Positions 694-13,905 of a stretch of 14,179 nt of DNA are shown here, piece by piece. Both the position numbers and the translations under genes were made by a program. The stretch is from Sphaerochaetaceae bacterium (lineage in GTDB: Bacteria; Spirochaetota; Spirochaetia; Sphaerochaetales; Sphaerochaetaceae): contig JAILRW010000089.1 of assembly GCA_024698005.1 (NCBI GenBank), positions 1 to 14,179 of the forward strand, in the 5' to 3' direction. Under the pieces are notes generated by a model that did no database searches, was not told the origin of the DNA, and saw only the letters and a list, made by a program, of their open reading frames with translations. How positions within the stretch are numbered: the first letter of the stretch is position 1; every line of letters starts with the position of its first letter.

Positions 694-1491
694 TCAATTA
701 GGGATGGAGAAGAGTTTTTCTGCAGTTCTGTGGAAGATGTTCTCATACTCTTCGCTTGTGAGGTTCAAGGAAAGCATTGCATCAAGCTCAGGATCAACAT
801 CCCACATTGGGAAATCTGAACCAAACATAATCTTTTCAGAGCCGAATGTTCTTATATACTTTTTGACCTTATCTTTTTCTACCCAGTGGAAGGTGGATGA
901 GGTATCTACAAACAAATTGTCATAAGTGTGAAGCCTCTCTACAGCCTCATCCCAGACCGACCAGCCTGAAAAATGAGCTCCGATGAAGGTTGTTTTTGGA
1001 AACATCCTTAACACAGGTTCTAGCTGATCAGGATTGGAGTAGTTATAGCGGTAATCTCCAGTATGGATAAGCACAGGAAGTCTTCCTTCACAAGCCTCGT
1101 AGAGTGGAAGAAGTCTTTTGTCGTTTATTGCACATAACTGTGTATCAGGATGGAGCTTTATACCTTTTAGTCCCAGAGAGATGATTTTATCAACAATTCC
1201 ACCCATATCAGGATAGTCCTGATGTACAGTACCTAGTCCTGTAAAAAAGCCATCTCCGAGAAGAACGGTGTTTGATATGAATGCATTTATACTATCAGTC
1301 TGAGCGAGCCTTGTTGCAACTGAAAAGATCACGGCATGGTCTACGCCACTATTTTCCCAGTGCTTTTTCATGCTGGCTGCTCTGCCATCTCCATAGCTAT
1401 GGATCCCATCATAGAAATCAGAGACACTCTTTACTGCCTTCATGGCAATTGCCTCAGGATATACATGACAATGGGAATCGATAATACGCAT
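694..1491 (-). CDS. Amidohydro_2 (PF04909-type) metal-dependent TIM-barrel hydrolase
   Basis: ORF 694-1503. I prefer the ATG at 1491 (MRIIDSHCHVY) because GGAG at 1498-1501 lies 6 nt upstream and the TTG at 1503 sits in the terminator U-tract. Hallmark strand motifs are present: DSHCHV (HxH), GIKLHP, PVLIHTG, GAHFSG, DTSS, IMFGSDFP. Confidence 0.8.
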   Translation of the reverse strand: MRIIDSHCHVYPEAIAMKAVKSVSDFYDGIHSYGDGRAASMKKHWENSGVDHAVIFSVATRLAQTDSINAFISNTVLLGDGFFTGLGTVHQDYPDMGGIVDKIISLGLKGIKLHPDTQLCAINDKRLLPLYEACEGRLPVLIHTGDYRYNYSNPDQLEPVLRMFPKTTFIGAHFSGWSVWDEAVERLHTYDNLFVDTSSTFHWVEKDKVKKYIRTFGSEKIMFGSDFPMWDVDPELDAMLSLNLTSEEYENIFHRTAEKLFSIPN

Positions 1492-1501
1492 ATTTTGCTC
1501 C

Positions 1502-1536
1502 AAAAGAAGCTATATCCGAGAATCCTCGGATATAGC
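1502..1536 (-). terminator. Rho-independent terminator downstream of the oxidoreductase gamma gene
   Basis: Perfect 12-bp inverted repeat gctatatccgag (1509-1520) / ctcggatatagc (1525-1536) with a 4-nt loop. On the minus strand it is followed by UUCUUUU (1508-1502). It lies 33 nt after the stop codon at 1570-1572. Confidence 0.8.
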
Positions 1537-1569: not shown

Positions 1570-2106
1570 TTACTCTTCTATATAGTTATAGCCAGCATCA
1601 ATTGCCTTCAAGTTGAGATCGTACATCTCTGGATGTTTTGCAGAGACGACCTTCTTGAGAGCTTCTTCAAGATAACCTCTTGAGAGTTCAGAATCCTTCA
1701 GCACCTTACCGATAAGTACGATGTTTGCAAGATTTGAAGCGCCAATATCCTGGGCAATTTTAGTTGCAGGAATATAGAAAGCTTCTACATCTTTTCTCTG
1801 TACCTTTCTTCCGACCAAGGATGAGTCGACAAAAATTGCACCACCTGGTTTTACAGTAGATTCATAACGATCTAAGGAAGGAAGGTTCATTACAATGAGA
1901 ACATCAGGATTATCGATGATAGGGGAACCGACAGGCTCGTCACTGATAGTGACAGAGCAGGAAGCAGTACCACCTCTCATTTCAGGACCATAGGAAGGGA
2001 GCCAAGAGAGCTCTTTTCCCTCTGAAAGTGCCTTGTAGGCAAGCAGCTTGCCAGAGAAGAGAATACCCTGACCTCCGAAACCAGCGATGAGAATCTGTGT
2101 TGTCAT
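1570..2106 (-). CDS. 2-oxoacid:ferredoxin oxidoreductase, gamma subunit
   Basis: 178 aa. The N-terminus [22 protein letters not shown] carries the GGQG motif typical of POR/KOR/VOR gamma subunits. The ATG at 2104-2106 overlaps the beta stop codon (ATGA), indicating translational coupling. Confidence 0.85.
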
Positions 2107-2855
2107 GCCTTTGCCTCCTGGTCCTTATCCTTGAAAACTCCGAGTGGGTAGTAAGGAATCATGTTGTTATCAACCCATTCAAGTGCCTTCTGAGGTGTCA
2201 TGCCCCAGTTTGTAGGACAAGCTGAGACAACTTCGATAAGTGAGAAGCCCTTACCCTCAATCTGGTTTCTGAAAGCCTTTTCAATTGCTTTCTTTGCTTT
2301 GAGTACATTCTTTACATTGTTTGCTGCAACACGCTCAATGTAGTATGGAGCATCGAGTGCAGAAAGCATCTCACAGACTTTGATAGGATAACCTGCGACC
2401 TTTACATCACGGCCATAAGGTGAGGTCTGAGTGACCTGACCTGGCAGTGATGTAGGAGCCATCTGGCCACCTGTCATACCATAGATTGCATTGTTGACGA
2501 AGATGATTGTGATATTCTCATTTCTGGTAGCAGCATGGACTGTTTCAGCCATACCGATACTAGCGAGGTCTCCATCACCCTGATAGGTAAAGACAATATT
2601 TCCAGGAAGAGCTCTCTTGATACCTGTTGCAACTGCAGGTGCTCTGCCGTGAGCGGCTTCTACCATATCACAAGAGAAGTAATCATAAGCCATAACAGCA
2701 CAGCCTACTGGTGCAACACCAATAGTTCTTCCTTCGATGCCGAGTTTGTCAATTGCCTCTGCTACGAGACGATGGATGATTCCATGAGGACAACCTGGAC
2801 AGTAGTGGAGCTCCTTTGAAGTGAGGCTCTTTGGTTTTTCAAATACAATTGCCAT
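2103..2855 (-). CDS. 2-oxoacid:ferredoxin oxidoreductase, beta (TPP-binding) subunit
   Basis: TPP motif YQGDGDLASIG...IIFVNNAIYGMTGGQ and the CPGCPHG cysteine cluster. I chose the start at ATG 2853-2855 (MAIVFEKPK) because it overlaps the alpha stop codon (TAATG). The extra 35 codons in the ORF-track call (to 2960) lie inside the alpha CDS. Confidence 0.85.
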   Translation of the reverse strand: MAIVFEKPKSLTSKELHYCPGCPHGIIHRLVAEAIDKLGIEGRTIGVAPVGCAVMAYDYFSCDMVEAAHGRAPAVATGIKRALPGNIVFTYQGDGDLASIGMAETVHAATRNENITIIFVNNAIYGMTGGQMAPTSLPGQVTQTSPYGRDVKVAGYPIKVCEMLSALDAPYYIERVAANNVKNVLKAKKAIEKAFRNQIEGKGFSLIEVVSACPTNWGMTPQKALEWVDNNMIPYYPLGVFKDKDQEAKA

Positions 2856-3922
2856 TAGTTCTTTCCTCCTTCTGCAAGTTCCTTTGTGACCTTGATAATC
2901 TGATCGACACTTGGAATCATACCGCCAGCTCTGTTGCAAAGAACAACAGGTCTGAGGCACTCTTCTGCGAGTTTTACATCTTCGATCATCTGACCCATTG
3001 AAAGCTCTACACTGACAAAGCCTTTTACCTTATCGGCTGCTTCTCTGATTGCCTTCTTAGGGAATGGCCAGATTGTGATAGGTCTGATAAGACCGACCTT
3101 CAAGCCTTCCTTTCTCATAGCTGTGATTGCATTCTTTGCAACACGAGCTGCAATACCAAAAGCAACGAGAGCATAATCTGCATCGTCCATCATATAGCTT
3201 TCGTATCTGACCTCGTTCTTTTCGATTTCAGCGTAGCGTTCGAAACGCTCGAAGTTGGTCTTCTCAAGTACTTCTGGGGAAAGATAGAGGGAGTTGATTA
3301 TATTGTGTTCTCTCTTCATCTGTGTACCAGTTACAGCCCAAGGCTTTTCTATTCCAGATTCTTTTTCTTCAGGCAGGGCAACTGGCTCCATCATCTGGCC
3401 CATTGTACCATCAGCAAGCAGCATTGCAGGACAGCGATACTTATCGGCAAGATCGAAAGCGAGGCTTGTAAGGTCTGCCATTTCCTGAACAGAACTAGGT
3501 GTGAGAACTATAAGATGATAGTCTCCATGTCCACCGCCTTTGGTTGCCTGGAAGTAGTCGGACTGGGATGGCTGGATGCCACCAAGGCCTGGACCACCTC
3601 TCTGGACGTTTACAATTACTGCTGGAAGATCTGCACCAGCAATGTAAGAAATACCTTCCTGCTTGAGTGAAATTCCAGGGGAGGAAGAGCTGGTCATAAC
3701 ACGCTTACCGGTGCCTGCGACACCGTATACCATGTTGATTGCACTGATTTCACTTTCAGCCTGTAAAAAGACACCGCCTTCCATCTTGGGAAGCTTCTTT
3801 GCCATGTAGGCAGTAAGCTCTGTCTGTGGAGTGATCGGGTAACCGAAATAATGTCTGCAGCCAGCACGGAGAGCAGCCTCTGCAATGGCCTCATTTCCTT
3901 TCATCAATACTTTTTCTGGCAT
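2855..3922 (-). CDS. 2-oxoacid:ferredoxin oxidoreductase, alpha subunit (VorB/KorA-like)
   Basis: MPEKVLMKGNEAIAEAALRAGCRHYFGYPITPQTE is the typical alpha-subunit N-terminus. The start at ATG 3920-3922 is preceded by AAGGGGG (3928-3934) at 5-nt spacing. The ORF-track start at 3943 would overlap the delta gene. Confidence 0.85.
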   Translation of the reverse strand: MPEKVLMKGNEAIAEAALRAGCRHYFGYPITPQTELTAYMAKKLPKMEGGVFLQAESEISAINMVYGVAGTGKRVMTSSSSPGISLKQEGISYIAGADLPAVIVNVQRGGPGLGGIQPSQSDYFQATKGGGHGDYHLIVLTPSSVQEMADLTSLAFDLADKYRCPAMLLADGTMGQMMEPVALPEEKESGIEKPWAVTGTQMKREHNIINSLYLSPEVLEKTNFERFERYAEIEKNEVRYESYMMDDADYALVAFGIAARVAKNAITAMRKEGLKVGLIRPITIWPFPKKAIREAADKVKGFVSVELSMGQMIEDVKLAEECLRPVVLCNRAGGMIPSVDQIIKVTKELAEGGKN

Positions 3923-3932
3923 CCGAACCCCC

Positions 3933-4139
3933 TTATCTCTCAACCGTTATAACGCAGTCTGGACACATAGTTGCGCAGAATGCACAAGCTATGCACTTGC
4001 TCTGGTCAGTCATTACGGCAGGGTTGTGTCCCTTTTTGTTGATCTTGTTTCTGTCAAGCGCAAGTATGTGCTTTGGACAGGCGTCTACACAGAGCCCACA
4101 GCCCTTGCAGATGTCCTCATTGAATGTCACTTTCGCCAT
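3933..4139 (-). CDS. 2-oxoacid:ferredoxin oxidoreductase, delta subunit (2x[4Fe-4S] ferredoxin)
   Basis: 68 aa with two CxxCxxCxxxCP motifs (CKGCGLCVDACP and CIACAFCATMCP). It sits immediately upstream of the alpha subunit, giving the delta-alpha-beta-gamma order of four-subunit VOR/KOR/POR enzymes. Confidence 0.85.
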   Translation of the reverse strand: MAKVTFNEDICKGCGLCVDACPKHILALDRNKINKKGHNPAVMTDQSKCIACAFCATMCPDCVITVER

Positions 4140-4155
4140 AGGAATACCCCATAAT

Positions 4156-4800
4156 TTATATTTCGAATGGTCGTCTCTGAAGTTTCAGAGGGACCATATC
4201 CTCAGTTGCAATACTCTCTTCTGCAGCAGTATAGACAAGAGGAAGAAAAGTGGTCTCAGAGAGCTTCTGGGCTCTCTCATAAGTTGCTTGTATCTTCTCT
4301 ACTGTTGTCTCCTGTCCCAGATTCGAGTTGTTTATTATCCCAGTGAATTTAAGTCCACACGCTCCCTCTATCTCCCTCATGACCTCGATAGCTTCATCAA
4401 CTGTAGTAGTAAGAGGGCGATAAAAGTTGACGACATAGAACATGTCATAGTCATTTTCTTCCAAGATATATGGAACAAAACGGCCAAGAGCATAGGCTCC
4501 ACGGTCATCACCTCCGATATCGAGAACGGCGTAGCGGCTTTTATCCTCCACCAGAGCATACGTCTCGCTTGGTAAGGCAGGTAGGTCAACGCTACTGTTT
4601 GCAAACGGTAGCGCTATTACCTTTACACCTTCTTTTTCAAGCAGGTCTTTACTATCCTTGGACCTGAAATATGGGTTAACTATGTCTATATCTGCCAGAC
4701 TTACAGGAAGATTCTTCCTTCTGAGATAGAGGGCATAGTTTACGGCAAGATTGGTCTTGCCACTGCCATAGTGTCCACAGAATAGTGTCATTCTCTTCAT
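4156..4800 (-). CDS. P-loop NTPase of unknown function
   Basis: Walker A GHYGSGKT near the N-terminus and a Walker-B-like hhhhD segment AVLDIGGDD. The ATG is 3 nt after the aminotransferase stop codon. I could not assign a finer family by eye. Confidence 0.6.
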   Translation of the reverse strand: MKRMTLFCGHYGSGKTNLAVNYALYLRRKNLPVSLADIDIVNPYFRSKDSKDLLEKEGVKVIALPFANSSVDLPALPSETYALVEDKSRYAVLDIGGDDRGAYALGRFVPYILEENDYDMFYVVNFYRPLTTTVDEAIEVMREIEGACGLKFTGIINNSNLGQETTVEKIQATYERAQKLSETTFLPLVYTAAEESIATEDMVPLKLQRRPFEI

Positions 4801-4803
4801 GTT

Positions 4804-5898
4804 TTAAGCCTTGAGACCGAGCTTGTAGACCCAGCCCATGAAGTCTTCAACCTTGCCAGTCTGCATACCGTAGAGGTTGTCATAGAGCTTCTGAGCAACA
4901 GGACCGACCTTGCCATCACCTACGACGTAATCTTCACCCTTTACACAGAGTGTGCCGATAGGGGAGATGACTGCAGCAGTGCCGGAAGCGAAGATTTCCT
5001 TGAGGTGACCGCTCTTGCTTGCTTCCATGATCTCATCAATTGAAAGCTTTCTTTCTGTAATCTTGATGTTCCAGTGCTTGAGGAGCTGGATTACAGAGTC
5101 ACGAGTGATACCAGGAAGGATTGTCTCAGAGTCGAGTGGGGCTGTAATTACCTCATCATCGATCATGAAGAAGGCGTTGGATGTACCAATCTCTTCAACA
5201 TACTTGTGTTCAGCAGCATCGAGCCAGAGTACGTCCTTACAGTTGTACTTCATTGCATCCTGGCTTGCTCTCATGCCACCACCGTAGTTGCCACCGACCT
5301 TTGCATAGCCTGTGCCACCCTTGGCAGCACGGATGTACTTATCCTGGACGTAGATTCTAGTTGTAGATAGACCTCCATCGTTAGCAGCATAGTAGGAACC
5401 GGTTGGAGAGAGGATTACCATGAAGCGGTAGTGCTTTGCAGGAAGTACAGAGAAGGAAACCTCATCACCAAAGATGAATGGTCTGATATACAGTGCAGTA
5501 CCTGGTGCAGTTGGAACCCAATCAATATCTTCCTTGATAACAGCCTTGATACCAGCAAGAAGAATGTCACCTGGGAGCTCAGGAATACACATTCTTTCAT
5601 TGGTGCGTGCCATTCTCTTGACGTTCATATCTGGTCTGAAGATCTGGATATCGCCTTCGCTGGTTCTGTAAGCTTTCATGCCCTCGAACATCATCTGAGC
5701 ATAGTGAAGTACGCAAGATGCTGGTTCAATAAGAATTGGTTCGTGTGGAACAACTCTACCATCGTGCCATCCCTGACCCTCATCCCAGTCCATGCAGAAC
5801 ATGTGATCGGTGAAATACTGTGCGAATCCGAGCTTGGTCTGGTCAGTTGGCCTCTTTTTCGGATGTGTGGTCCTAGTTACTGGAAAATTGTACTCCAT
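4804..5898 (-). CDS. ilvE: Branched-chain amino acid aminotransferase (fold-type IV)
   Basis: GFAQYFTDHMF, HYAQMMFEGMKAYR, ALYIRPF, LSPTGSYY, GGTGYAKVGGNYG, EIGTSNAFF and LPGITR closely resemble long-form BCATs such as Bacillus YbgE/YwaA. I chose the start at ATG 5896-5898 (MEYNFPV) because AAGGAG lies 9 nt upstream. The ORF-track start at 5925 is a TTG that overlaps the preceding gene. Confidence 0.9.
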   Translation of the reverse strand: MEYNFPVTRTTHPKKRPTDQTKLGFAQYFTDHMFCMDWDEGQGWHDGRVVPHEPILIEPASCVLHYAQMMFEGMKAYRTSEGDIQIFRPDMNVKRMARTNERMCIPELPGDILLAGIKAVIKEDIDWVPTAPGTALYIRPFIFGDEVSFSVLPAKHYRFMVILSPTGSYYAANDGGLSTTRIYVQDKYIRAAKGGTGYAKVGGNYGGGMRASQDAMKYNCKDVLWLDAAEHKYVEEIGTSNAFFMIDDEVITAPLDSETILPGITRDSVIQLLKHWNIKITERKLSIDEIMEASKSGHLKEIFASGTAAVISPIGTLCVKGEDYVVGDGKVGPVAQKLYDNLYGMQTGKVEDFMGWVYKLGLKA

Positions 5899-5921
5899 AA
5901 AGCATATCTCCTTTTCCATAA

Positions 5922-6710
5922 TCAATTTACTTTGTATATATCAGGTCTTCTATCAGCAAAGACATTGATACTTGTTCTTATACCATCGAGAATGCTTGGG
6001 TCAAGAGTTGCATAAAGTATTTCTTCCTTATCCTTTGCATGTGCGATGGTTTCTCCCCATGGATCTGTAACAGAGCTGTTACCACCAAATACAGTTCCTG
6101 GAGCCTTGCCTGCTGAATTGCAGCAGACGACAAACATCTGGTTCTCAATAGCTCTTGCTTTTGTGAGTGCATCAAGGTGAGGCACTCTGACAAGTGGCCA
6201 CTGGGATACCATGAAGAGAACGTCGAGTCCCTTTGTGCTCATTGTTCTGATGAGCTCAGGGAAGCGAACGTCATAACAGATAATTACACCACATTTGAGT
6301 CCATCGAGGGTGAAGGTGGAAGTGTGGTTTCCTTTTTTGAAGAACTTGTCTTCCCCCATTGGTGAAAATAGGTGAGTCTTATCGTACTCAGCTACTACAT
6401 TTCCCTCGCGGTCGAATGTGTAGGATGTGTTGTAGATACCATCTGCTTTTTTATTGGCAATACTACCTGCAACAATGTTTACACCCAGCTCCTTGGCAAG
6501 AGGAGAGAATGTCGCTTTAAGCATTGCACCATCCTGATCTGCAAGCTTTTCCAGGTTTTCCTCTGGGAAAAAACCTACATTCCAGGTCTCTGGCAGAAGA
6601 ATGACATCAGGCTTCTTCTCTGCTGCTTCACGCACAAGAGCTACTGCCTTCTTGAAATTGTCTTCTGGCTTTGCAAAAGCCATATCCATTTGAATACAAG
6701 AGACCTTCAT
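5922..6710 (-). CDS. Carbon-nitrogen hydrolase (nitrilase superfamily; omega-amidase/Nit2/MtnU-like)
   Basis: 262 aa. Glu-Lys-Cys triad contexts are present: ILLPETW, YDKTHLF, GVIICYDVRFPE. GAGGAGG lies upstream of the ATG at 6710. Confidence 0.8.
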   Translation of the reverse strand: MKVSCIQMDMAFAKPEDNFKKAVALVREAAEKKPDVILLPETWNVGFFPEENLEKLADQDGAMLKATFSPLAKELGVNIVAGSIANKKADGIYNTSYTFDREGNVVAEYDKTHLFSPMGEDKFFKKGNHTSTFTLDGLKCGVIICYDVRFPELIRTMSTKGLDVLFMVSQWPLVRVPHLDALTKARAIENQMFVVCCNSAGKAPGTVFGGNSSVTDPWGETIAHAKDKEEILYATLDPSILDGIRTSINVFADRRPDIYKVN

Positions 6711-6721
6711 TATCTTCCTCC

Positions 6722-8983
6722 TCAGAGCATATTGCGGATAATCTTTCCGCTGATTGTCTTAGGAAGCTCGTCCCTGAAGACAATCTGTCTTGGATACTTG
6801 TAAGGTGCGGTGTGCGACTTTACATAGTTCTGGATTTCCTTCTTGAGATCCTCTGATGGTTCTGTTCCCTTTGTAAGAACGATAGATGCCTTTACAATCT
6901 GTCCTCTTACAGGATCTGGAGCAGCAGATACACCACACTCGAGAACGTAAGGGAGCTCCATGATTACAGACTCTACTTCGAATGGTCCGATTCTGTAGCC
7001 AGAGGACTTGATGATGTCGTCTACGCGACCGACATAGAAGAAGTAGCCATCCTCATCCTGCCATGCAGTATCACCTGTGTGGTAGAATCCATCGTGGATT
7101 GCTTCCTTGGTCTTCTCCTCATCCCTGTAGTACTCAGTAAAGAGACCAACTGGTCTTCCTTCAGAAAGATCGATGACGATTTCACCAACTTCACCTGGTG
7201 GTACTGGCTTTCCTTCATTGTCAACAAGCATGACCTTGTACTGAGGAGAAGCCTTACCCATAGAACCGAGCTTGACCTTTCCACCACCGAAGTTTGCAAC
7301 GGTAAGGGTTGTTTCGGTCTGGCCAAAGCCTTCGCAGATCTCCAATCCTGTTGCCTTGTAGAACTGTGTTGCAACCTCTGGGTTGAGTGCTTCGCCAGCT
7401 GTGGTCATATGCTTGACTGAACTGAAGTTGTACTTTGAGAGATCCTCTTTTATCATCATCCTGAGCATTGTAGGAGGTGCACAGAAGGTCTTGATCTGGT
7501 AGTTTGCAAACATAGGCATGATATCGTCTGCGTGGAAGCGATCGAAGTCGTAGACAAAGACAGCGCCTTCACACATCCACTGGCCATAGAGCTTGCCCCA
7601 GAGGGACTTGCCCCAGCCGGTATCGGAGATGGTGAGGTGAAGTCCATCAGGCTCGCAGCAGTGCCAATACTTTGCAGTGAGGAAGTGACCCAAAGCATAG
7701 GTGTGCTTGTGCTCGACCATCTTTGGGTTTCCTGTAGTACCAGAAGAGAAGAACATGAGTGCGGCTTCATCACCACATGGAGTCTTATCAGTTCTTCTGA
7801 GGGAGCTCTTGAATCTTGGATACTCCTCATTGAAGTCTCTCCAACCATCTCTCTGACCATTTACGATCATCTTGAGCTTAAGTGTTGGACAGTTTGGCTG
7901 TACCTTATCAACTGTTTCTGCACAGTCTCCATCAGCAGTACATACGATTGCCTTTATACCTGCAGCGTTGAAGCGGTATTCGAAGTCGTGCTCTCTGAGC
8001 TGGTAGGTTGCAGGAATAGCAACTGCTCCGATCTTGTGAAGAGCAACCATAGCAGGCCAGAACTGGTAATGTCTCTTGAGAACAAGCATTACCTTATCCC
8101 CTTGTTCGATTCCCAATGAGAGGAAGTAGTTTGCGACTCTGGCACTTTCCTTCTTTATATCCATGAAGGTAAGACGACGCTCTACCTTGTTCTTGTCAAG
8201 GTGGATCATAGCAAGTCTATCAGGATACTTTTCAGCAATTGCATCGACAACATCGTAACCGAAGTTGAACTTCTCTGTATTCTTGAATTTGACGTCTTTC
8301 AGGACACCCTTTTCATCTTCGATACAGTCGACGAACTTGTTGATAAGCAGTTTGCGTGTTGATGGTGCAGGTGCAAGAGATGCAGCTATGCTTGTATCAC
8401 CATTCTCATCCTCGCCAGGAAGGACAACTGCTACGAAGAGACAGTCCTTGCCGTCGATTGCAATCATGCCGTGTGGGGTAGAGGAGTTGTAATAGATACA
8501 GTCACCTTCATGGAGAACTTCCTTATTGGTTCCGACCTGTACAAGGAGAGAACCCTGGATGACGATATCGAATTCCTGTCCAGCGTGGGTTGCAAGCTGG
8601 ATTGGTTTTCCCTGAAGTTCTTCCGAGTAGTCGTACTTTACCCAGTAAGGCTCTGCAATCTTGTTCTTGAATTTAGGAGCAAGGTTCTGGATATCTATAC
8701 CCATCTCCTTTGCGGTCTGCTGACCCATGCCCTTACGGGTTATTGTGTAGGATGAAAGTCTTGTAGAATGACCTTCAAGCAGATCGGTAATATCGATTGC
8801 GAAAACCATTGCACACTTGTGAATGAAAGAGAAAGGAAGGTCTGCTTCTCCACTTTCATAAGCCTTGTATTCTGCAAGGGTCAGGTCAGTTTTCTGAGCC
8901 ATGGTGTTCTGAGAGAAACCCATGATCTCGCGCATGTCTCGAATTCTGGATGCGACTTCCAGAAGCTGTGATTCAGTATCCAC
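6722..8983 (-). CDS. Fusion protein: XRE-type HTH plus cupin (aa 1-190) joined to an ACSM-type medium-chain acyl-CoA synthetase (aa 211-753)
   Basis: GTG start at 8983 with GGAGG (8990-8994) 6 nt upstream. The N-terminus (REIMGFSQNTMAQKTDLTLAEYKAYESG) is an HTH_3-like segment. It is followed by cupin strands (HAGQEFDIVIQGSL...LHEGDCIYYNSSTPHGM). The C-terminal 540 aa carry AMP-binding motifs FFSSGTTGNPK, DTGWGKSLW, GFGQTETT, YHTGD, GRVDDIIKSSGYRIGPFEVE and LPKTISGKIIR, and resemble ACSM/MACS enzymes (APDPVRGQIVKA, APYKYPRQIVF). Confidence 0.85.
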   Translation of the reverse strand: MDTESQLLEVASRIRDMREIMGFSQNTMAQKTDLTLAEYKAYESGEADLPFSFIHKCAMVFAIDITDLLEGHSTRLSSYTITRKGMGQQTAKEMGIDIQNLAPKFKNKIAEPYWVKYDYSEELQGKPIQLATHAGQEFDIVIQGSLLVQVGTNKEVLHEGDCIYYNSSTPHGMIAIDGKDCLFVAVVLPGEDENGDTSIAASLAPAPSTRKLLINKFVDCIEDEKGVLKDVKFKNTEKFNFGYDVVDAIAEKYPDRLAMIHLDKNKVERRLTFMDIKKESARVANYFLSLGIEQGDKVMLVLKRHYQFWPAMVALHKIGAVAIPATYQLREHDFEYRFNAAGIKAIVCTADGDCAETVDKVQPNCPTLKLKMIVNGQRDGWRDFNEEYPRFKSSLRRTDKTPCGDEAALMFFSSGTTGNPKMVEHKHTYALGHFLTAKYWHCCEPDGLHLTISDTGWGKSLWGKLYGQWMCEGAVFVYDFDRFHADDIMPMFANYQIKTFCAPPTMLRMMIKEDLSKYNFSSVKHMTTAGEALNPEVATQFYKATGLEICEGFGQTETTLTVANFGGGKVKLGSMGKASPQYKVMLVDNEGKPVPPGEVGEIVIDLSEGRPVGLFTEYYRDEEKTKEAIHDGFYHTGDTAWQDEDGYFFYVGRVDDIIKSSGYRIGPFEVESVIMELPYVLECGVSAAPDPVRGQIVKASIVLTKGTEPSEDLKKEIQNYVKSHTAPYKYPRQIVFRDELPKTISGKIIRNML

Positions 8984-8998
8984 AACTTACCTCCGTAT

Positions 8999-9045
8999 AA
9001 AAAAAGCTCGTCTCAAAGACTTGCGAATTATCTTTGAGACGAGCT
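8999..9045 (-). terminator. T-box expression-platform terminator
   Basis: 15-bp perfect stem AGCUCGUCUCAAAGA (9045-9031) / UCUUUGAGACGAGCU (9019-9005) with an 11-nt loop, followed by a run of U to 8999. The 5' arm (CUCAAA, 9038-9033) can alternatively pair with UUUGAG (9093-9088) of the T-box motif to form the antiterminator. Confidence 0.9.
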
Positions 9046-9287
9046 ACATATCCAATCAAAGAATGAGATATGATACCCGCGGTACCACTCAAATTGCGCA
9101 TTTCTGCGCCACTCAGGCTCTATCAAGCCGTATGCCCTAACGCGGCAGGATCGGGGGCCCATTACTCACCATAAAATGGCTTTCCTTTCCCCAGCTCGGA
9201 AGTGATAGGATTACAGGCCCTTCGCTACTGGCTCACACCGTACCCAGCTCGCTGATGCTATCTTCCTGGTCCCTCTTCGTCTTAGCT
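8999..9287 (-). promoter_or_regulatory. T-box riboswitch leader (tRNA-sensing transcription attenuator), probable Ile (AUC) specifier
   Basis: Read on the minus strand. The K-turn-like stem I base is AGC-UAA-GA-C-GAAG (9287-9275) with CUUC-C-GA-GCU (9202-9193). AG box AGCGAG is at 9253-9248. The distal stem CUGG/CCAG carries a loop containing GGUGUGAG (9239-9232). Stem III is GCGCA-GAAA-UGCGC (9109-9096). The T-box motif AAUUUGAGUGGUACCGCGGG is at 9095-9076, and its UGGU bulge implies an A73 tRNA. An antiterminator/terminator alternative is present. The candidate specifier AUC (9206-9204) plus purine A (9203) lies directly 5' of the closing CUUC. Confidence 0.85.
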
Positions 9288-9296
9288 ATTAATTCG

Positions 9297-9325
9297 CTTT
9301 TACCATTTCAGAAAAAAAGAGTCAA
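9297..9325 (-). promoter_or_regulatory. Putative sigma-A promoter for the T-box leader
   Basis: Minus strand: -35 TTGACT (9325-9320), 17-nt spacer ending in TGG (extended -10), -10 TAAAAG (9302-9297). The -35 element overlaps the TGA stop codon (9322-9324) of the upstream ligase gene. The -10 is weak, so this call is tentative. Confidence 0.4.
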
Positions 9326-11778
9326 CAAAGATTGAACCTTTTTTCTGAAACCTCTTTCATTTTATATTTCAAGATCTTTCCCGCAGCGTTCATTGGGAAA
9401 CTTTCTACGAATACAAAGTAGCGAGGCACCTTGTGCTTTGCCATTGATTTGTAACCGTAATCCTTCATCTCTGCTTCGTCTGCACTCTGGCCATCATGCA
9501 AGATTACCCAGGCACAGGCCTCCTCGCCATAGACGTTATCCTTGACGCCGACTACCTGAACATCCTTTATCTTTGGATTTGTGAGATAGAACTCCTCGAT
9601 TTCTCTTGGATAGATATTCTCTCCTCCACGGATGATCATGTCCTTGAGACGACCTGTTACCTTGAAGTAGCCATCTGGGGTGCGGCAGCAGATATCGCCT
9701 GTATGGAGCCAACCATCGGCATCGATGGTCTTTGCTGTAGCTTCAGGCATCTTGTAGTAGCCTTTCATTATGTTGAAGCCTCTGGCAACGAACTCTCCAT
9801 TTTCTCCATCTGGCAGGTCTTTGCCAGTTTCAGGATCGATGATCTTGCACTCGACACCAGGGAAGGCAGAGCCTACAGTGTCTACTCTGTGGTCAAGGTC
9901 CTCATTTACTTCTCCCATGGTACAGCCAGGGGAGGATTCAGTCTGGCCGTATACGGACAGGATTTCCTTCATGTTCATTTCAACAGAGGCTCTTCTCATA
10001 AGATCTGCAGGGCAGTTTGCACCAGCCATGATTCCGGTTCTCATGTATGAGAAATCGGTCTTGGCAAAGTCAGCATGGTTGAACATTGCAATGAACATTG
10101 TAGGAACACCATTGAAGCAGGTGATTTTCTCTTGGTTTATGCAAGCAAGTGATGAGCGGGGTGAGAAGTATGGCATTGGACAGATGGTTCCACCGTGAGT
10201 CATCAGGTTAGTCATAGAAAGTACCATACCAAAGCAGTGGAACATAGGGACCTGGATCATCATTCTGTCTGCAGTAGAGATGTCCATTCTATCCCCGATA
10301 GTCTTACCGTTGTTGATGATATTCTTATGTGTCAGCATGACTCCCTTAGGAAAGCCAGTGGTTCCTGATGTGTACTGCATGTTACATACATCATCAGGTC
10401 TTACCATTGAAGCTCTTCTTCTGACCTCTTCCTGAGGAATGCTATCTGCACGCTCAAGCATCTGGTCCCAGTTGAGAGCCCCTTCCATGTCGAACCCGAC
10501 AGTTATTACATTTCTCAAAAAAGGCAGTCTCTTGGCAAAGAGAGGTTCTCCCTTCTTGTGCTTTTCAAGCTCAGGACAGAGCTCCTGGACAATTTCCTTG
10601 TAGCCAATATCCTTGAGGCTCTCGATCATGACGAGAGTGTGGGTATCTGACTGTCTGAGAAGATACTCGACTTCATGGATTTTATAAGCTGTGTTGACAG
10701 TGACAAGTACGGCACCGATCTTGGTCGCAGCCCAGAAGGATAAAAACCAGGCTGGGATGTTGGTTGCCCAGACAGCTACGTGGTAGCCAGGCTTTACTCC
10801 AAGGGAAATAAAGGCAGCAGCAACTGTATCTACATCCTTCTTGAATTCACTGTATGTCCTTGTGTAATCAAGGGTTGTATATTTGAATGCATACTGATCC
10901 GGATACTTTTCAGCCATAGTATCCAGAACCTCTCCAAAAGTTTTGTTTATAACCTTGTATTTCTTCCAAGGGAATGTGCCTGTTCTAGAGCGATTGAAAT
11001 AGATGGTGTCCTTCTTCTGGTTCTCTCCAGAAAGACGGGAGATGAAGGTTCCAAAGTGAGTGAGAACGATATCTGCATCCTGAACTTCATCATTCCAGTC
11101 AACTGCGAAGAAGCCTTCGTAGTTGAGGGACCTCAGGGCCTTGAGGAAATCCTCAACAGGAAGCTTTCCTTCACCGATAAGGACATTGGTATCATCAAGG
11201 CGGTCACCGATACGGACATATCGAATGTAGGCACCAAGTGTCTTTATTGTAGTCTCTGCACTCTCTCCTGCGAAGAAATAGCTCTCTCTAACATTCCAGG
11301 CAGCCCCGATAGCAGGGGAAGCAAAGACATTTATTATATCCAGAAGCTCACTGGTCTTTGAGAGAGGACCACTAGTTTCAAAGAGGATATCAATATTCTT
11401 CTTTTCCGCTATTTCTATGGCCTGCTCAAACTTCTTCAGGAGCTCTGTTGCATCCACTTGATCATCGATAGATACGATTACATTCTCAACTGATGATAGG
11501 GCAGCCATATCAATATACTGGACGAGAGATACAGCTGAAACCTCAGCGTGGTTTACTGGAAGAGGAAAGGTGATCGCGGAAACTTCTACAGAGTGGTTTC
11601 TCTGGGCAATTCTTCCTTCAGAGATCGACTCTGCTCTCAGAACACTGTCCGAGTGCTTATTTCTCTCTTCTGCTGCATCGTAGATTTCAAAACCATCCAT
11701 GCCATATTCAGAGGCAAAGCGACAGAGTGATGAGAAGGATGGCAGGTCAACATATCTTGTTGAAAAAGCTATCTTCAT
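9322..11778 (-). CDS. Fusion protein: xylose-isomerase-like TIM barrel (aa 1-250) joined to an AMP-dependent acyl-CoA ligase (FadD/ACSF2-like, aa 270-818)
   Basis: The N-terminal segments GMDGFEIY, ILFETSG, YIRYVRIGD and GEGKLPVEDFLKALRSLNYEGFFAVDW follow the pattern of AP_endonuc_2 / sugar-phosphate isomerase-epimerase barrels. The C-terminal part has QYTSGTTGFPKGVMLTH, YGQTESSP, GWLHTGD, GRLKDMIIRGGENIYPREIE and NAAGKILK. The ATG at 11778 overlaps the stop codon of the upstream gene by 4 nt (ATGA). Confidence 0.8.
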   Translation of the reverse strand: MKIAFSTRYVDLPSFSSLCRFASEYGMDGFEIYDAAEERNKHSDSVLRAESISEGRIAQRNHSVEVSAITFPLPVNHAEVSAVSLVQYIDMAALSSVENVIVSIDDQVDATELLKKFEQAIEIAEKKNIDILFETSGPLSKTSELLDIINVFASPAIGAAWNVRESYFFAGESAETTIKTLGAYIRYVRIGDRLDDTNVLIGEGKLPVEDFLKALRSLNYEGFFAVDWNDEVQDADIVLTHFGTFISRLSGENQKKDTIYFNRSRTGTFPWKKYKVINKTFGEVLDTMAEKYPDQYAFKYTTLDYTRTYSEFKKDVDTVAAAFISLGVKPGYHVAVWATNIPAWFLSFWAATKIGAVLVTVNTAYKIHEVEYLLRQSDTHTLVMIESLKDIGYKEIVQELCPELEKHKKGEPLFAKRLPFLRNVITVGFDMEGALNWDQMLERADSIPQEEVRRRASMVRPDDVCNMQYTSGTTGFPKGVMLTHKNIINNGKTIGDRMDISTADRMMIQVPMFHCFGMVLSMTNLMTHGGTICPMPYFSPRSSLACINQEKITCFNGVPTMFIAMFNHADFAKTDFSYMRTGIMAGANCPADLMRRASVEMNMKEILSVYGQTESSPGCTMGEVNEDLDHRVDTVGSAFPGVECKIIDPETGKDLPDGENGEFVARGFNIMKGYYKMPEATAKTIDADGWLHTGDICCRTPDGYFKVTGRLKDMIIRGGENIYPREIEEFYLTNPKIKDVQVVGVKDNVYGEEACAWVILHDGQSADEAEMKDYGYKSMAKHKVPRYFVFVESFPMNAAGKILKYKMKEVSEKRFNLC

Positions 11779-13169
11779 TTCTGGCTCTCCTCATAGGCAA
11801 TCTTGTTGAGTGCGTTGATGTATGCACGTATTGAAGCACCGACGATGTCGGAAGAAAGGCCATTTCCTGAGTAGAGCTTTCCATCACTTCTAAGTCTTAC
11901 AAGAGCACTTCCCAATGATTCCTTGCCTTCTGTTACTGCCTGGATCTGGAAATCATCAACCTCATACTGGTGTCCTACACACTGTTCTATTGCCATGAAG
12001 GCTGAATCGATAGGGCCACCACCTACGCCATTGCCACTGAGGTTTTCACCTCCCTTGTCGAGAACAACGTTGGTAACGCTGTTTACCTTGTTTGAGGTAG
12101 TAACAACGAAGGAAATCAAGTTGTAGGTTGCAGGGAACTGCATTGCACTTGATGCAATTATTGCCTCAAGCTCCTTGCTGGAAATGGAAGATTTCTTCTC
12201 GCAAAGGCTCATGAGAGCTTCGTAGACCTTGCCATTGTCATCTGGAGAGAGGTCGTATCCCAAGGATTTAACTGCTTCGGTTACCTGCTCTATGGAGCTT
12301 TCAGAGTCGAGGAAGATTGCTGAACCATCGAGGTGGAAATCCTCTTCCTCCTTCTTCTTGTTCTGTATCTTCTTGAGCATTGATTCGATATCGGAGTGAA
12401 GCTCAGTAAAGCGCAGGTTTGTAGCGATATCGAGATCACTTCCCTTGATCTTGAGAGCCTGGGCAAAGCTGTCGATTTTCAACGCATCCTTACCGTTTAT
12501 GCTGACTTTGACGCCATCTACGCCTGCCTTTATGGCCTGGAGAGCATTGGCAACAGCAAGGCTTATGCTATCAGATACTTTTACCATTACAGGAAGCTTT
12601 ACATTCTCTTTTATCTCTTTTACGAGAAGTGCGAAATCCTCTGGCATCAAGATTCCTGCATCATCAGAGATTGTGATGATGCCAGCACCTGCTTCCTTTG
12701 CAGCCTTGCAGGCCTGGATCAGGATTTCCTTGTCACTTCTTGTTGCATCGAGGGCCTCGAATTCTACATCTTCACAAACTCCTCTAGCCGCAAGCACAAG
12801 CTCCTTGAGCTTTTCAAGAAGTTTAGGTTCCTTAAGCCTGTACAGATACTCCATCTGAACGGTTGAGACAGGAAGTGAAATCTGAAGCCTTGGATGGAAT
12901 GCACTCTTGATGGATTCTGCAGCCAGCTTGACCTCTTCAACTTTGATTCCTGCAGGGATTGCAATGATTCTGTTCTTTACAGATTCAGAGATTGTCTTTG
13001 CGACAATCTTGTCTTCTCTAGGGTTCTTTATATAAGGTAGTTCGATCACATCAGCACCGTACCTACATAGACCTAGGGCAATAGCAAGCTTTTCTCTGAA
13101 TAAAAGCTGTGACTTTCCACTGCCACCAAGTTCTTTCAATGTGTAATCGGAAATAGTGATTCTTCTCAT
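11775..13169 (-). CDS. 2-isopropylmalate/citramalate synthase-like protein with a degenerate active site and a conserved LeuA-type C-terminal regulatory domain
   Basis: Start at ATG 13167-13169 (MRRITISDYTL) with AAAGGAG (13175-13181) 5 nt upstream. It is colinear with LeuA: the HMGL-like barrel (VEFEALDATR, ITISDDAGILMP, LAVANALQAIKAGVDGVKVSING) and the C-terminal domain (GNGVGGGPIDSAFMAIEQ...GKESLGSALVRL...GNGLSSDIVGASIRAYINALNKI). The catalytic motifs are replaced; see findings. Confidence 0.75.
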   Translation of the reverse strand: MRRITISDYTLKELGGSGKSQLLFREKLAIALGLCRYGADVIELPYIKNPREDKIVAKTISESVKNRIIAIPAGIKVEEVKLAAESIKSAFHPRLQISLPVSTVQMEYLYRLKEPKLLEKLKELVLAARGVCEDVEFEALDATRSDKEILIQACKAAKEAGAGIITISDDAGILMPEDFALLVKEIKENVKLPVMVKVSDSISLAVANALQAIKAGVDGVKVSINGKDALKIDSFAQALKIKGSDLDIATNLRFTELHSDIESMLKKIQNKKKEEEDFHLDGSAIFLDSESSIEQVTEAVKSLGYDLSPDDNGKVYEALMSLCEKKSSISSKELEAIIASSAMQFPATYNLISFVVTTSNKVNSVTNVVLDKGGENLSGNGVGGGPIDSAFMAIEQCVGHQYEVDDFQIQAVTEGKESLGSALVRLRSDGKLYSGNGLSSDIVGASIRAYINALNKIAYEESQK

Positions 13170-13216
13170 GTGATCTCCTTTCATGCTATTTGAGTAAATA
13201 GCTTTGCATGCTCACA

Positions 13217-13244
13217 ATTATTGCGAAACAGTTTAAAGAGTCAA
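13217..13244 (-). promoter_or_regulatory. Putative sigma-A promoter for the synthase-like/ligase genes
   Basis: Minus strand: -35 TTGACT (13244-13239), 16-nt spacer, -10 AATAAT (13222-13217). It lies about 45 nt upstream of the ATG at 13169, inside a 412-bp AT-rich intergenic region. Confidence 0.45.
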
Positions 13245-13581
13245 CAGAGTTTAGAATTCAAATCAATATAATTTTGTTTAAAAACTACATAATTATGCAA
13301 AAAGTTGCAAAAAAACATTTTGATGATAATCTGTTGTTTTAATAATAACAAATATAGCTCTCTCCAAATGTATGAATCGCTTGAATTTGCAGATATGAAA
13401 ATGTACATAAAGAGTTAAAAAAATAACTCTGAGTATGCGGGAAATGGAATTGCTAATGACAATTAACAGGAGTGTTGAAGTAATAATACAGGTATGTAGG
13501 CATCTCAATACAAATACTTCAGGCCTGTTTGAATCTGATATTAATAATATGTATATAGGTTGGTTATCAGATTATTTGCTC

Positions 13582-13905
13582 TCACATGATTCTGATAAGA
13601 AGCATGTAGCAAAGTGTTCCCACAATTATAGAAAGGTACATGTTCCTTCTTGTCCACTGAAGTAGGACTACAAGGAGGGATGAGATTATTTCAGGTAGAC
13701 CGAAAGGGTAAGAGGTGAAGTTACTGTTCCTGAGCAGGTAGATGACAAGGGTTGTCATTATGGCAGGTGGCAGCACTTTGCCAAGGTAAGAAAGCCACCA
13801 AGGGAGGCTTTTACCGGAAAAGAGCAGGAATGGAAGTGCTCTGAGAGTTGTTGTAACAGCTGCAATTGTCAAAATTGATACCAGGATTGTGGCTGTATCA
13901 TTCAT
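13582..13905 (-). CDS. azlD: Branched-chain amino acid transport protein AzlD
   Basis: 107-aa hydrophobic protein (LRALPFLLF...LPPAIMTTLV...) with the size and pattern of AzlD. Its ATG (13903-13905) overlaps the end of the upstream AzlC-like ORF by 8 nt. Confidence 0.8.
   Translation of the reverse strand: MNDTATILVSILTIAAVTTTLRALPFLLFSGKSLPWWLSYLGKVLPPAIMTTLVIYLLRNSNFTSYPFGLPEIISSLLVVLLQWTRRNMYLSIIVGTLCYMLLIRIM

Follow-up and report, generated by a model that had tools for sequence, protein, structure and literature searches.

The window analysed here, a 14,179-nucleotide (nt) stretch of a Sphaerochaetaceae bacterium assembly (GCA_024698005.1, contig JAILRW010000089.1), carries on its reverse strand a gene (6722–8983) in which a helix-turn-helix (HTH) domain and a cupin domain are joined to an acyl-CoA synthetase (ACS) in a single uninterrupted frame of 753 codons. 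The frame starts at a GTG codon (8983–8981), which lies 6 nt downstream of a GGAGG ribosome-binding site (8990–8994), and ends at a stop codon at 6722–6724. Its product comprises an XRE-type, five-helix HTH-like domain (residues 8–72; 8768–8962), a cupin β-barrel (residues 88–190; 8414–8722), a flexible linker of Pro, Ala, Ser and charged residues (residues 191–222; 8318–8413), and a branched short/medium-chain acyl-CoA synthetase, probably a 2-methylbutyrate-CoA ligase (residues 223–753; 6725–8317). An earlier note, made from the sequence alone, had proposed just this order of an HTH_3-type domain, a Cupin_2 domain, a linker, and a full ACSM/Macs-type ligase, and Pfam, AlphaFold, Foldseek and motif analysis all bear it out. 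In the profile searches that the note had named as a check, Cupin_2 exceeded its cutoff (residues 129–186, 41 bits versus 27.2), whereas the HTH models fell slightly under theirs: HTH_19 at residues 12–71 (E = 3.3e-6, 27.4 bits versus 30.2) and HTH_3 at residues 14–68 (E = 1.4e-4, 22.2 bits versus 23). We accept the sub-threshold HTH call because free-standing homologues exist, the AlphaFold model contains five helices, and Foldseek retrieves structures that combine an HTH with a cupin. The ligase part matched AMP-binding (residues 248–605, 220 bits) and AMP-binding_C (residues 669–747, 76 bits), and its adenylation motifs are legible in the translation (SSGTTGNPK, GFGQTE, YHTGD, GRVDDIIKSSGYRIGPFEVE, and PKTISGK). 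Conservation and model confidence are both lowest in the linker, with a predicted local distance difference test score (pLDDT) below 50 at residues 191–210 and none of the 25 columns at residues 191–215 invariant.

The gene is the first behind a T-box leader, as the earlier note had stated. A probable sigma-70 promoter, recognized by inspection and by comparison with orthologous loci, occupies 9297–9325 on the reverse strand, with a −35 element TTGACT (9325–9320), a 17-nt spacer, and an extended −10 element TGgTAAAAG (9305–9297); orthologous loci show TTGACA-17-TATAAT in the same place. A pattern scanner for promoters and terminators called neither this promoter, whose −10 ends in G, nor the terminator described below, whose loop is 9 nt. 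The −35 overlaps the TGA stop codon of the upstream gene, so that the region 9290–9330, put forward earlier as a binding site for the N-terminal module, is simply a −35/−10 promoter overlapping a stop codon. Downstream of it lies the leader (RF00230; 9061–9292, reverse strand), which scored 46 bits (E = 6.9e-9) in Rfam and emerged only with an E-value threshold; at the gathering threshold (93 bits), neither the T-box nor any other family was matched in the window. The leader contains an AUC (Ile) specifier codon at 9206–9204 followed by a purine, A, the T-box sequence AGUGGUACCGCG at 9089–9078, and an intrinsic terminator (8999–9045) with a 16-bp stem (9045–9005) and a U7 tract (9005–8999), whose predicted fold of −26.4 kcal/mol (z = −4.99) was equalled by none of 200 shuffled sequences. 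The leader is kept upstream of nearly every orthologue, and nearly every copy of the gene, and of the paralogue described below, has a T-box about 100 nt upstream. In an alignment of 131 leaders, the specifier column reads ATC in the rows listed for the first copy and GTA (Val) in the rows listed for the paralogue. On the strength of the AGUGGUACCGCG box, the terminator with its U7 tract, and the conservation before almost every orthologue, we regard the T-box as real, though weak by the Rfam standard.

The fusion is widespread. At least 583 related loci emerged from a scan limited to one genome per species; the 80 best were examined for the full-length protein, and all of them, each from a different species, encode the same continuous fusion over residues ~1–753 at 69–94% identity. 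Such recurrence excludes a frameshift or an error of assembly. The hosts are Sphaerochaetaceae/Spirochaetales and, for the most part, Clostridia (Acutalibacteraceae, Oscillospiraceae, Ruminococcaceae, and Christensenellaceae), and the sources named in the records are metagenome-assembled genomes (MAGs) from rumen, gut or faeces. A Sphaerochaetaceae MAG is the recorded source of an identical protein, labelled "AMP-binding protein", and more than 120 close homologues have the same four Pfam domains. In most Clostridial loci, a second HTH-cupin-ACS gene (~60% identity) follows ~350–450 nt after the first and stands behind its own T-box, with the specifier GUA (Val), while the window and the other Sphaerochaetaceae loci hold the Ile copy only. 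Three ligase-domain positions alone cleanly separate the paralogues, and two of these differences, C443V and G458A, flank the pocket residue Trp440 and the DTGWGK motif. One ligase paralogue would thus appear to be tuned to the Ile route and the other to the Val route. The presence of a T-box operon in a spirochaete MAG, and the 69–73% identity of the window protein to its Clostridial counterparts, suggest that the whole T-box operon unit may have been transferred horizontally from Bacillota to the spirochaete.

The N-terminal module also occurs without the ligase attached. A search with residues 1–215 against 1.8 billion cluster representatives gave 1824 matches at E ≤ 1e-3 and 494 at E ≤ 1e-10. 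Among these were other long fusions (758–768 residues, 40–51% identity) and about 50 free-standing proteins of 180–197 residues, which align over residues 5–188 (31–46% identity; E = 1e-25 to 1e-47 for those of 183–196 residues) and hence mark the module as a complete HTH-cupin unit. Source annotations describe these genes as "AMP-binding protein", "cupin domain-containing protein" or "XRE family transcriptional regulator". We sampled the split form in five lineages, namely three Clostridia (one an Anaerotruncus), Bacteroidales/Muribaculaceae, and Prolixibacteraceae. In all five, the next gene on the same strand after the HTH-cupin gene encodes an AMP-binding protein of 549–556 residues that shares 50–57% identity with the ligase portion of the fusion in the window, at a spacing between a 1-nt overlap and 28 nt, and the pair is probably co-translated. 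Two Clostridial split pairs lie behind T-boxes of their own (83 and 104.5 bits in Rfam), the specifiers of which we read as AUC by analogy with the first copy. In a rough neighbour-joining tree, some fused forms nest among split forms, and from one fused lineage to another the linkers show no sequence relationship; both points suggest that fusion or fission happened more than once. This Rosetta-stone pattern indicates that the HTH-cupin module and this ligase subfamily work together one-to-one in Bacillota, Bacteroidota, and Spirochaetota. Since the closest structurally solved relative of the ligase is active alone (see below), the module would be accessory to ligation and not catalytic for it, and its role is most simply regulatory.

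The substrate and the pathway are what we infer from homology, T-box and operon content. The closest solved structure to the ligase part is that of MacsMa from Methanosarcina acetivorans (Protein Data Bank [PDB] 3ETC; E = 1.2e-188), with which it aligns over its whole length and shares the alternative acyl-pocket Trp of the AKYW motif, LTAKYW being conserved in the alignment with 3ETC. MacsMa prefers 2-methylbutyrate as substrate, the role of its alternative Trp in the pocket has been described, and it is active without any partner module (PMC10455477). In its structure, only ~40 residues precede the aligned region, too short a stretch for an HTH-cupin module. The best NCBIfam model for the ligase, MbcS, scored 442 bits against a cutoff of 850, which misses the equivalog level; the profile match thus places the enzyme in the MbcS subfamily, yet not as the same named protein. 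MbcS of S. aureus is reported to act in the making of branched-chain fatty acids, for which branched carboxylic acids are the precursors. Given the homology to MacsMa, the Ile T-box and the operon content, the substrate of the window ligase is most likely 2-methylbutyrate.

Downstream genes on the same strand are consistent with such a substrate. A branched-chain amino acid aminotransferase (4804–5925) exceeds its NCBIfam cutoff (PRK13357, 446 bits versus 307), and a 2-oxoacid:ferredoxin oxidoreductase of the 2-oxoisovalerate type (VOR; 1570–3943) is encoded by alpha (2855–3943), beta (2103–2960), and gamma (1570–2106) genes with Pfam matches to POR_N/PFOR_II, TPP_enzyme_C, and POR, its alpha subunit scoring 553 bits against the NCBIfam VorB cutoff of 399. 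Between the oxidoreductase alpha gene and a P-loop gene lies an open reading frame (ORF) of 68 residues (3933–4139) that would escape an 80-residue ORF cutoff; with two CxxCxxCxxxCP motifs for two [4Fe-4S] clusters, it is probably the ferredoxin-like delta subunit. The P-loop protein itself (4156–4800, 214 residues) is weakly CbiA/MinD-like (Pfam CbiA, 23.5 bits, under cutoff) and matched no NCBIfam model; its gene directly precedes the VOR genes in the majority of loci that extend far enough, and the protein may serve the oxidoreductase in maturation or as an accessory factor. In rumen organisms, the formation of isoleucine by reductive carboxylation of 2-methylbutyrate is a recognized, classical route (PMC2812497). 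By this route, the operon would salvage branched acids into amino acids: the ligase would convert 2-methylbutyrate to 2-methylbutyryl-CoA in an ATP-consuming entry step, the VOR-type oxidoreductase would reductively carboxylate 2-methylbutyryl-CoA to 3-methyl-2-oxopentanoate, and the aminotransferase would convert the latter to isoleucine, with transcription of the operon gated by the Ile-specific T-box.

Where related loci reach far enough, the conserved order is a CimA-like gene, a TIM-barrel::ACS gene, the T-box, the HTH-cupin-ACS gene, a carbon-nitrogen (CN) hydrolase in some, the aminotransferase, the P-loop gene, and VOR. In the window, the TIM-barrel::ACS fusion (9322–11778, reverse strand; 818 residues) combines a xylose-isomerase-like AP_endonuc_2 domain (residues 20–231) with a complete AMP-binding ligase, and in many related loci its counterpart (65–92% identity) directly follows the CimA/LeuA-like gene. 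The latter, a LeuA/CimA-like synthase of 469 residues with a LeuA_dimer regulatory domain (11775–13184, reverse strand), scored under all NCBIfam equivalog cutoffs, and upstream of it lies a gene for an AzlD branched-chain amino acid transport protein (13582–13905, reverse strand). As for 13170–13260, which the earlier note had offered as a second binding site, no RNA family was matched in the region 13100–13700 upstream of the CimA-like gene, and operator-like DNA motifs were not searched there. Two further genes have no obvious role in an acid-to-amino-acid route: the CN hydrolase of the nitrilase superfamily (5922–6710, reverse strand; Pfam CN_hydrolase, E = 8e-53), found in only part of the orthologous loci, and an Amidohydrolase_2 family protein (694–1503; Pfam E = 8e-29), which is the last gene on the strand and is co-located in Sphaerochaetaceae loci. 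Separately, and unrelated to the fusion, one Clostridial contig with a split pair (L087) contains a ZMP/ZTP riboswitch (1437–1514, reverse strand; 59.6 bits, above gathering), and in the syntenic loci L088 and L089 the gene after it is PFL-like/glycyl-radical.

To describe the N-terminal module, we built an AlphaFold model from 97 sequences. The model (pLDDT 85.7) consists of five helices (residues 3–21, 25–31, 36–43, 51–61, and 65–70; pLDDT ~90) and a cupin barrel (pLDDT 93–98) joined by a floppy hinge at residues 73–76. Within the barrel, which carries the motif GD..YY..S..PHGM, His133, Glu137, and His171 are invariant in alignments of 97 and 49 sequences, with the spacing His133-x3-Glu137. 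A sequence search of the PDB with the module gave marginal matches only (E ≥ 0.1). By structure, Foldseek ranked first the uncharacterized Vibrio cholerae protein 1Y9Q (E ~1e-14), deposited as an HTH_3 family transcriptional regulator, and returned at equal significance many structures of HppE, Psf4, HEPD, and MPnS (E = 1e-14 to 1e-9, template-modelling score ~0.5). These four are non-haem iron enzymes of phosphonate pathways, each built from an HTH-like α-domain plus a cupin. Their HTH-like domain is structural and is not known to bind DNA, which makes them a precedent for an XRE-like HTH fold without that function; in HppE, it helps to form the active site.

The same likeness raises the question of whether the cupin is itself an enzyme. 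On such an account, which we consider improbable, the cupin would be an HppE/KdgF-like metal-dependent enzyme that acts on the substrate or product of the ligase, for example by isomerization or by hydrolytic editing of wrongly activated acyl-adenylates, and the HTH-like domain would help to form its active site. The 2-His-1-carboxylate pattern of His133-x3-Glu137 and His171, the Foldseek matches to HppE, Psf4, HEPD, and MPnS at up to E ~1e-14 over the whole two-domain module, and the strict one-to-one coupling with the ligase all accord with it. Yet the regulator PuuR has the same His/Glu/His pattern in our alignment, identity to HppE is only ~19%, and the pathway requires no further chemical step. 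The hosts are, moreover, probably strict gut or rumen anaerobes, in which the oxygen-dependent chemistry of HppE is unlikely, and, in contrast to the context of HppE and HEPD, no phosphonate genes were found in the window or the related loci. An epimerase role for the cupin was considered separately and rejected, since isobutyrate, the probable substrate of the Val paralogue, is achiral.

Divergence differs among the parts of the protein, with a non-synonymous divergence (dN) of 0.27 for the HTH, 0.17 for the cupin, 0.57 for the linker, and 0.07–0.14 for the ligase, although synonymous divergence is saturated (1.4–2.1), which makes selection estimates and ratios rough. Thirteen residues of the HTH and 24 of the cupin are near-invariant. 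These values indicate that the HTH is under purifying selection, and they contradict the suggestion of the earlier note that it could be a vestige: its non-synonymous divergence is about half that of the linker. That the module as a whole is an evolutionary relic, a regulator fused by loss of a stop codon and now functionless or retained as a solubility or dimerization tag, seems to us very improbable. A relic would indeed explain why the HTH is, among the folded parts, the least conserved, why the linker varies freely, and why MacsMa can do without such a module; against this, the module is kept in more than 80 species-level genomes of two phyla and in both paralogues, has dozens of invariant residues and a dN well under the linker value, and is paired with the ligase gene across three phyla.

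A stronger rival takes the HTH at face value. The protein would then be a bifunctional enzyme and transcription factor, in the manner of BirA, PutA or NadR, in which a cupin-mediated dimer binds DNA and the binding is switched by a ligand or by the catalytic state, with acid, acyl-AMP or acyl-CoA in place. Control by the substrate would then be added to that by the T-box, at this operon or at others such as the de novo ilv/leu/cimA genes. The HTH_19 and HTH_3 matches and the NCBIfam PuuR model, which covers residues 8–186 (E = 3e-5), point this way, as does the deposition of the top Foldseek match, 1Y9Q, as a transcriptional regulator, but the Pfam HTH scores lie under the curated cutoffs and the PuuR equivalog score is 23.6 against a cutoff of 211. 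PuuR and SutR, which an E. coli record annotates as DNA-binding transcriptional regulators, have the same two-domain order and size (~185 residues), the His/Glu/His positions, and weak full-length similarity to the module (18% identity for PuuR). Unlike them, the window-type module is always coupled to an ACS, and its HTH is acidic. The HTH has a net charge of −5 in the window protein and of −6 to −9 in the family, the means being −6.5 and −6.2 for the two sets of fused proteins and −8.0 for the relatives that stand alone. By comparison, 434 repressor has +4, and of the two E. coli regulators PuuR has +1 and SutR +5.

Purifying selection on the HTH, with Arg13, Arg18, and Lys31 conserved, would fit a DNA-binding function. 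The conserved residues are, however, mostly core or salt-bridge positions, whereas the exposed positions 35–38, 40, and 41 of the recognition-helix equivalent (residues 35–43) vary even among orthologues. The recognition helix reads T-L-A-E-Y-K in the window protein and S-E-E-E-Y in the family consensus, compared with T-H-S-A-I-S and S-K-A-M-L-G in PuuR and SutR. Equivalents of Gln28, Gln29, and Ser30 of 434 repressor are Glu, Asp or hydrophobic, and variable; its Lys40 is replaced by an invariant Asp, and its Arg41 by a hydrophobic residue. The PuuR-like combination of a polar or basic DNA-contact surface with a non-acidic domain is absent from this family.

We also searched for an operator, by k-mers and inverted repeats, in the 130-nt stretches that precede 75 + 46 T-boxes, a set that covers promoters of this operon. 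These 121 orthologous and paralogous promoter regions shared no motif beyond the −35, the −10, and A-tracts, and their inverted repeats were barely longer than those in shuffled sequences (6.1 versus 5.6 nt). The regulator-first layout of the split forms, including those of Bacteroidota, where no T-box was seen, speaks for transcriptional control, and AT-rich imperfect palindromes do occur upstream of some Bacteroidota pairs, but these are not common to the lineages and are of the size expected in AT-rich DNA. One-to-one production with an abundant metabolic enzyme would also be unusual for a regulator. A precedent is nonetheless at hand in FadD1 of Pseudomonas aeruginosa, an ANL-family acyl-CoA ligase that is reported to bind a fatty-acid signal as well as promoter DNA in a ligand-dependent manner, its DNA binding depending on a leucine-zipper motif and not on an XRE HTH-cupin module (PMC12754631). 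Taken together, acidity, variable contacts, and the missing shared operator are arguments, not proof, against canonical operator binding, and we judge a bifunctional enzyme-regulator to be rather unlikely, though far from negligible. The proposal that the protein regulates its own transcription is accordingly weakened by these features, while the retention of Arg18 still speaks for it.

The reading that we favour, tentatively and at a little less than even confidence, is that the module senses a ligand or a metal and, as a regulatory domain or subunit, controls the ligase at the protein level. We prefer it to a transcription factor on account of the acidic HTH, the variable recognition positions, the lack of an operator in the 121 promoter regions, and the pairing of the split forms with the ligase. 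In this mechanism, the module would be made one-to-one with the enzyme, either fused to it or as a probably co-translated separate subunit, and the cupin pocket with its His-Glu-His triad would bind a small ligand or a metal, candidate ligands being the end-product amino acid, the acid substrate or the acyl-CoA. The cupin and the HTH-like α-domain would together control the activity or the oligomeric state of the ligase, with the HTH-like domain serving as a structural or interaction domain and not as a sequence-specific reader of DNA. The ATP-costly entry step would thereby come under protein-level control, to which the T-box would add control of transcription. Of the possibilities raised in the earlier note, a cupin that acts as ligand sensor and partner of the ligase fits best, given that the split module gene lies directly upstream of a gene for the same ligase.

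Several observations weigh against protein-level sensing, in addition to the roughness of the selection estimates. Between the Ile and Val paralogues, the cupin motifs hardly differ, which fits a common ligand better than sensing of the specific end-product, although several paralogue-specific positions do lie within and before the cupin. The full-length AlphaFold model, whose alignment contained only close ligase homologues, is of low quality (pLDDT 63.8, predicted template-modelling score 0.50) and uninformative on any docking between module and ligase. The operator search was confined to the promoters of this operon. Arg18, the equivalent of 434 Arg10, and the Ser/Thr helix caps are kept, a negative net charge alone does not exclude DNA binding, for an autoregulator, too, it is normal to be encoded at the head of its operon, and the free-standing relatives are annotated by their sources as XRE-family regulators.

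Regulation of an entry enzyme by a small module has parallels. On the branched-chain amino acid pathways, IlvN/IlvH and the C-terminal domains of IlvA, LeuA, and CimA provide regulatory domains or subunits for the entry enzymes, fused or separate, and the window protein is alike in having a small module fused to or beside the first committed, energy-consuming enzyme; their sensors have ACT or LeuA-dimer folds, not an HTH-cupin, and allostery in the present case is a hypothesis. In BirA, an N-terminal HTH on an adenylate-forming enzyme lets the catalytic state control DNA binding, the adenylate intermediate being the corepressor. The likeness of the window protein to BirA, an N-terminal HTH joined to an adenylate-forming enzyme, is an architectural analogy only: BirA combines a winged HTH with a class II synthetase-like fold, and the folds are unrelated, the window protein has an interposed cupin and an acidic HTH, and no operator was found for it. 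S. aureus MbcS is not known to carry an HTH-cupin module. HppE, Psf4, HEPD, and MPnS share with the window module both the two-domain fold and the 2-His-1-Glu pattern.

Full-text literature searches found no paper on this architecture, the gene pair or a T-box-labelled operon of this kind, which is not proof of absence, and nothing relevant turned up on the control of VOR or ligase genes by T-boxes or on the HTH of HppE. The architecture is already present in public domain annotations, and it is its meaning that appears to be undescribed. It is possible, though we would not yet call it probable, that HTH-cupin proteins fused to or adjoining Macs-type ligases form an unrecognized class of regulatory subunit for adenylate-forming enzymes. 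We hold with similar reserve the joint proposal that a phage-repressor-type HTH has here been re-used for a protein-level, metabolite-sensing switch of branched-acid activation. The interest of the finding rests mainly on its wide occurrence, its testability, and the possible redefinition of many annotated regulators: if the module acts on the enzyme, many "XRE family transcriptional regulators" of gut and rumen anaerobes would be mislabelled and not transcription factors, and adenylate-forming enzymes would be regulated in a new way. If the module binds DNA instead, the protein would be a new BirA-like enzyme-repressor.

That fibre degraders of the rumen and gut require isobutyrate, 2-methylbutyrate, and isovalerate is a long-established fact. 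The locus described here offers a concrete, T-box-labelled salvage gene set of ligase, VOR, and aminotransferase, and the specifier codons link the two ligase paralogues to Ile and Val, respectively. The conserved coupling of module and ligase, fused or split in three phyla, points to control at the entry of the route beyond that exerted by the T-box. If the proposal holds, the Ile and Val specifiers would pin down the long-sought genes by which branched volatile fatty acids are turned into branched-chain amino acids.

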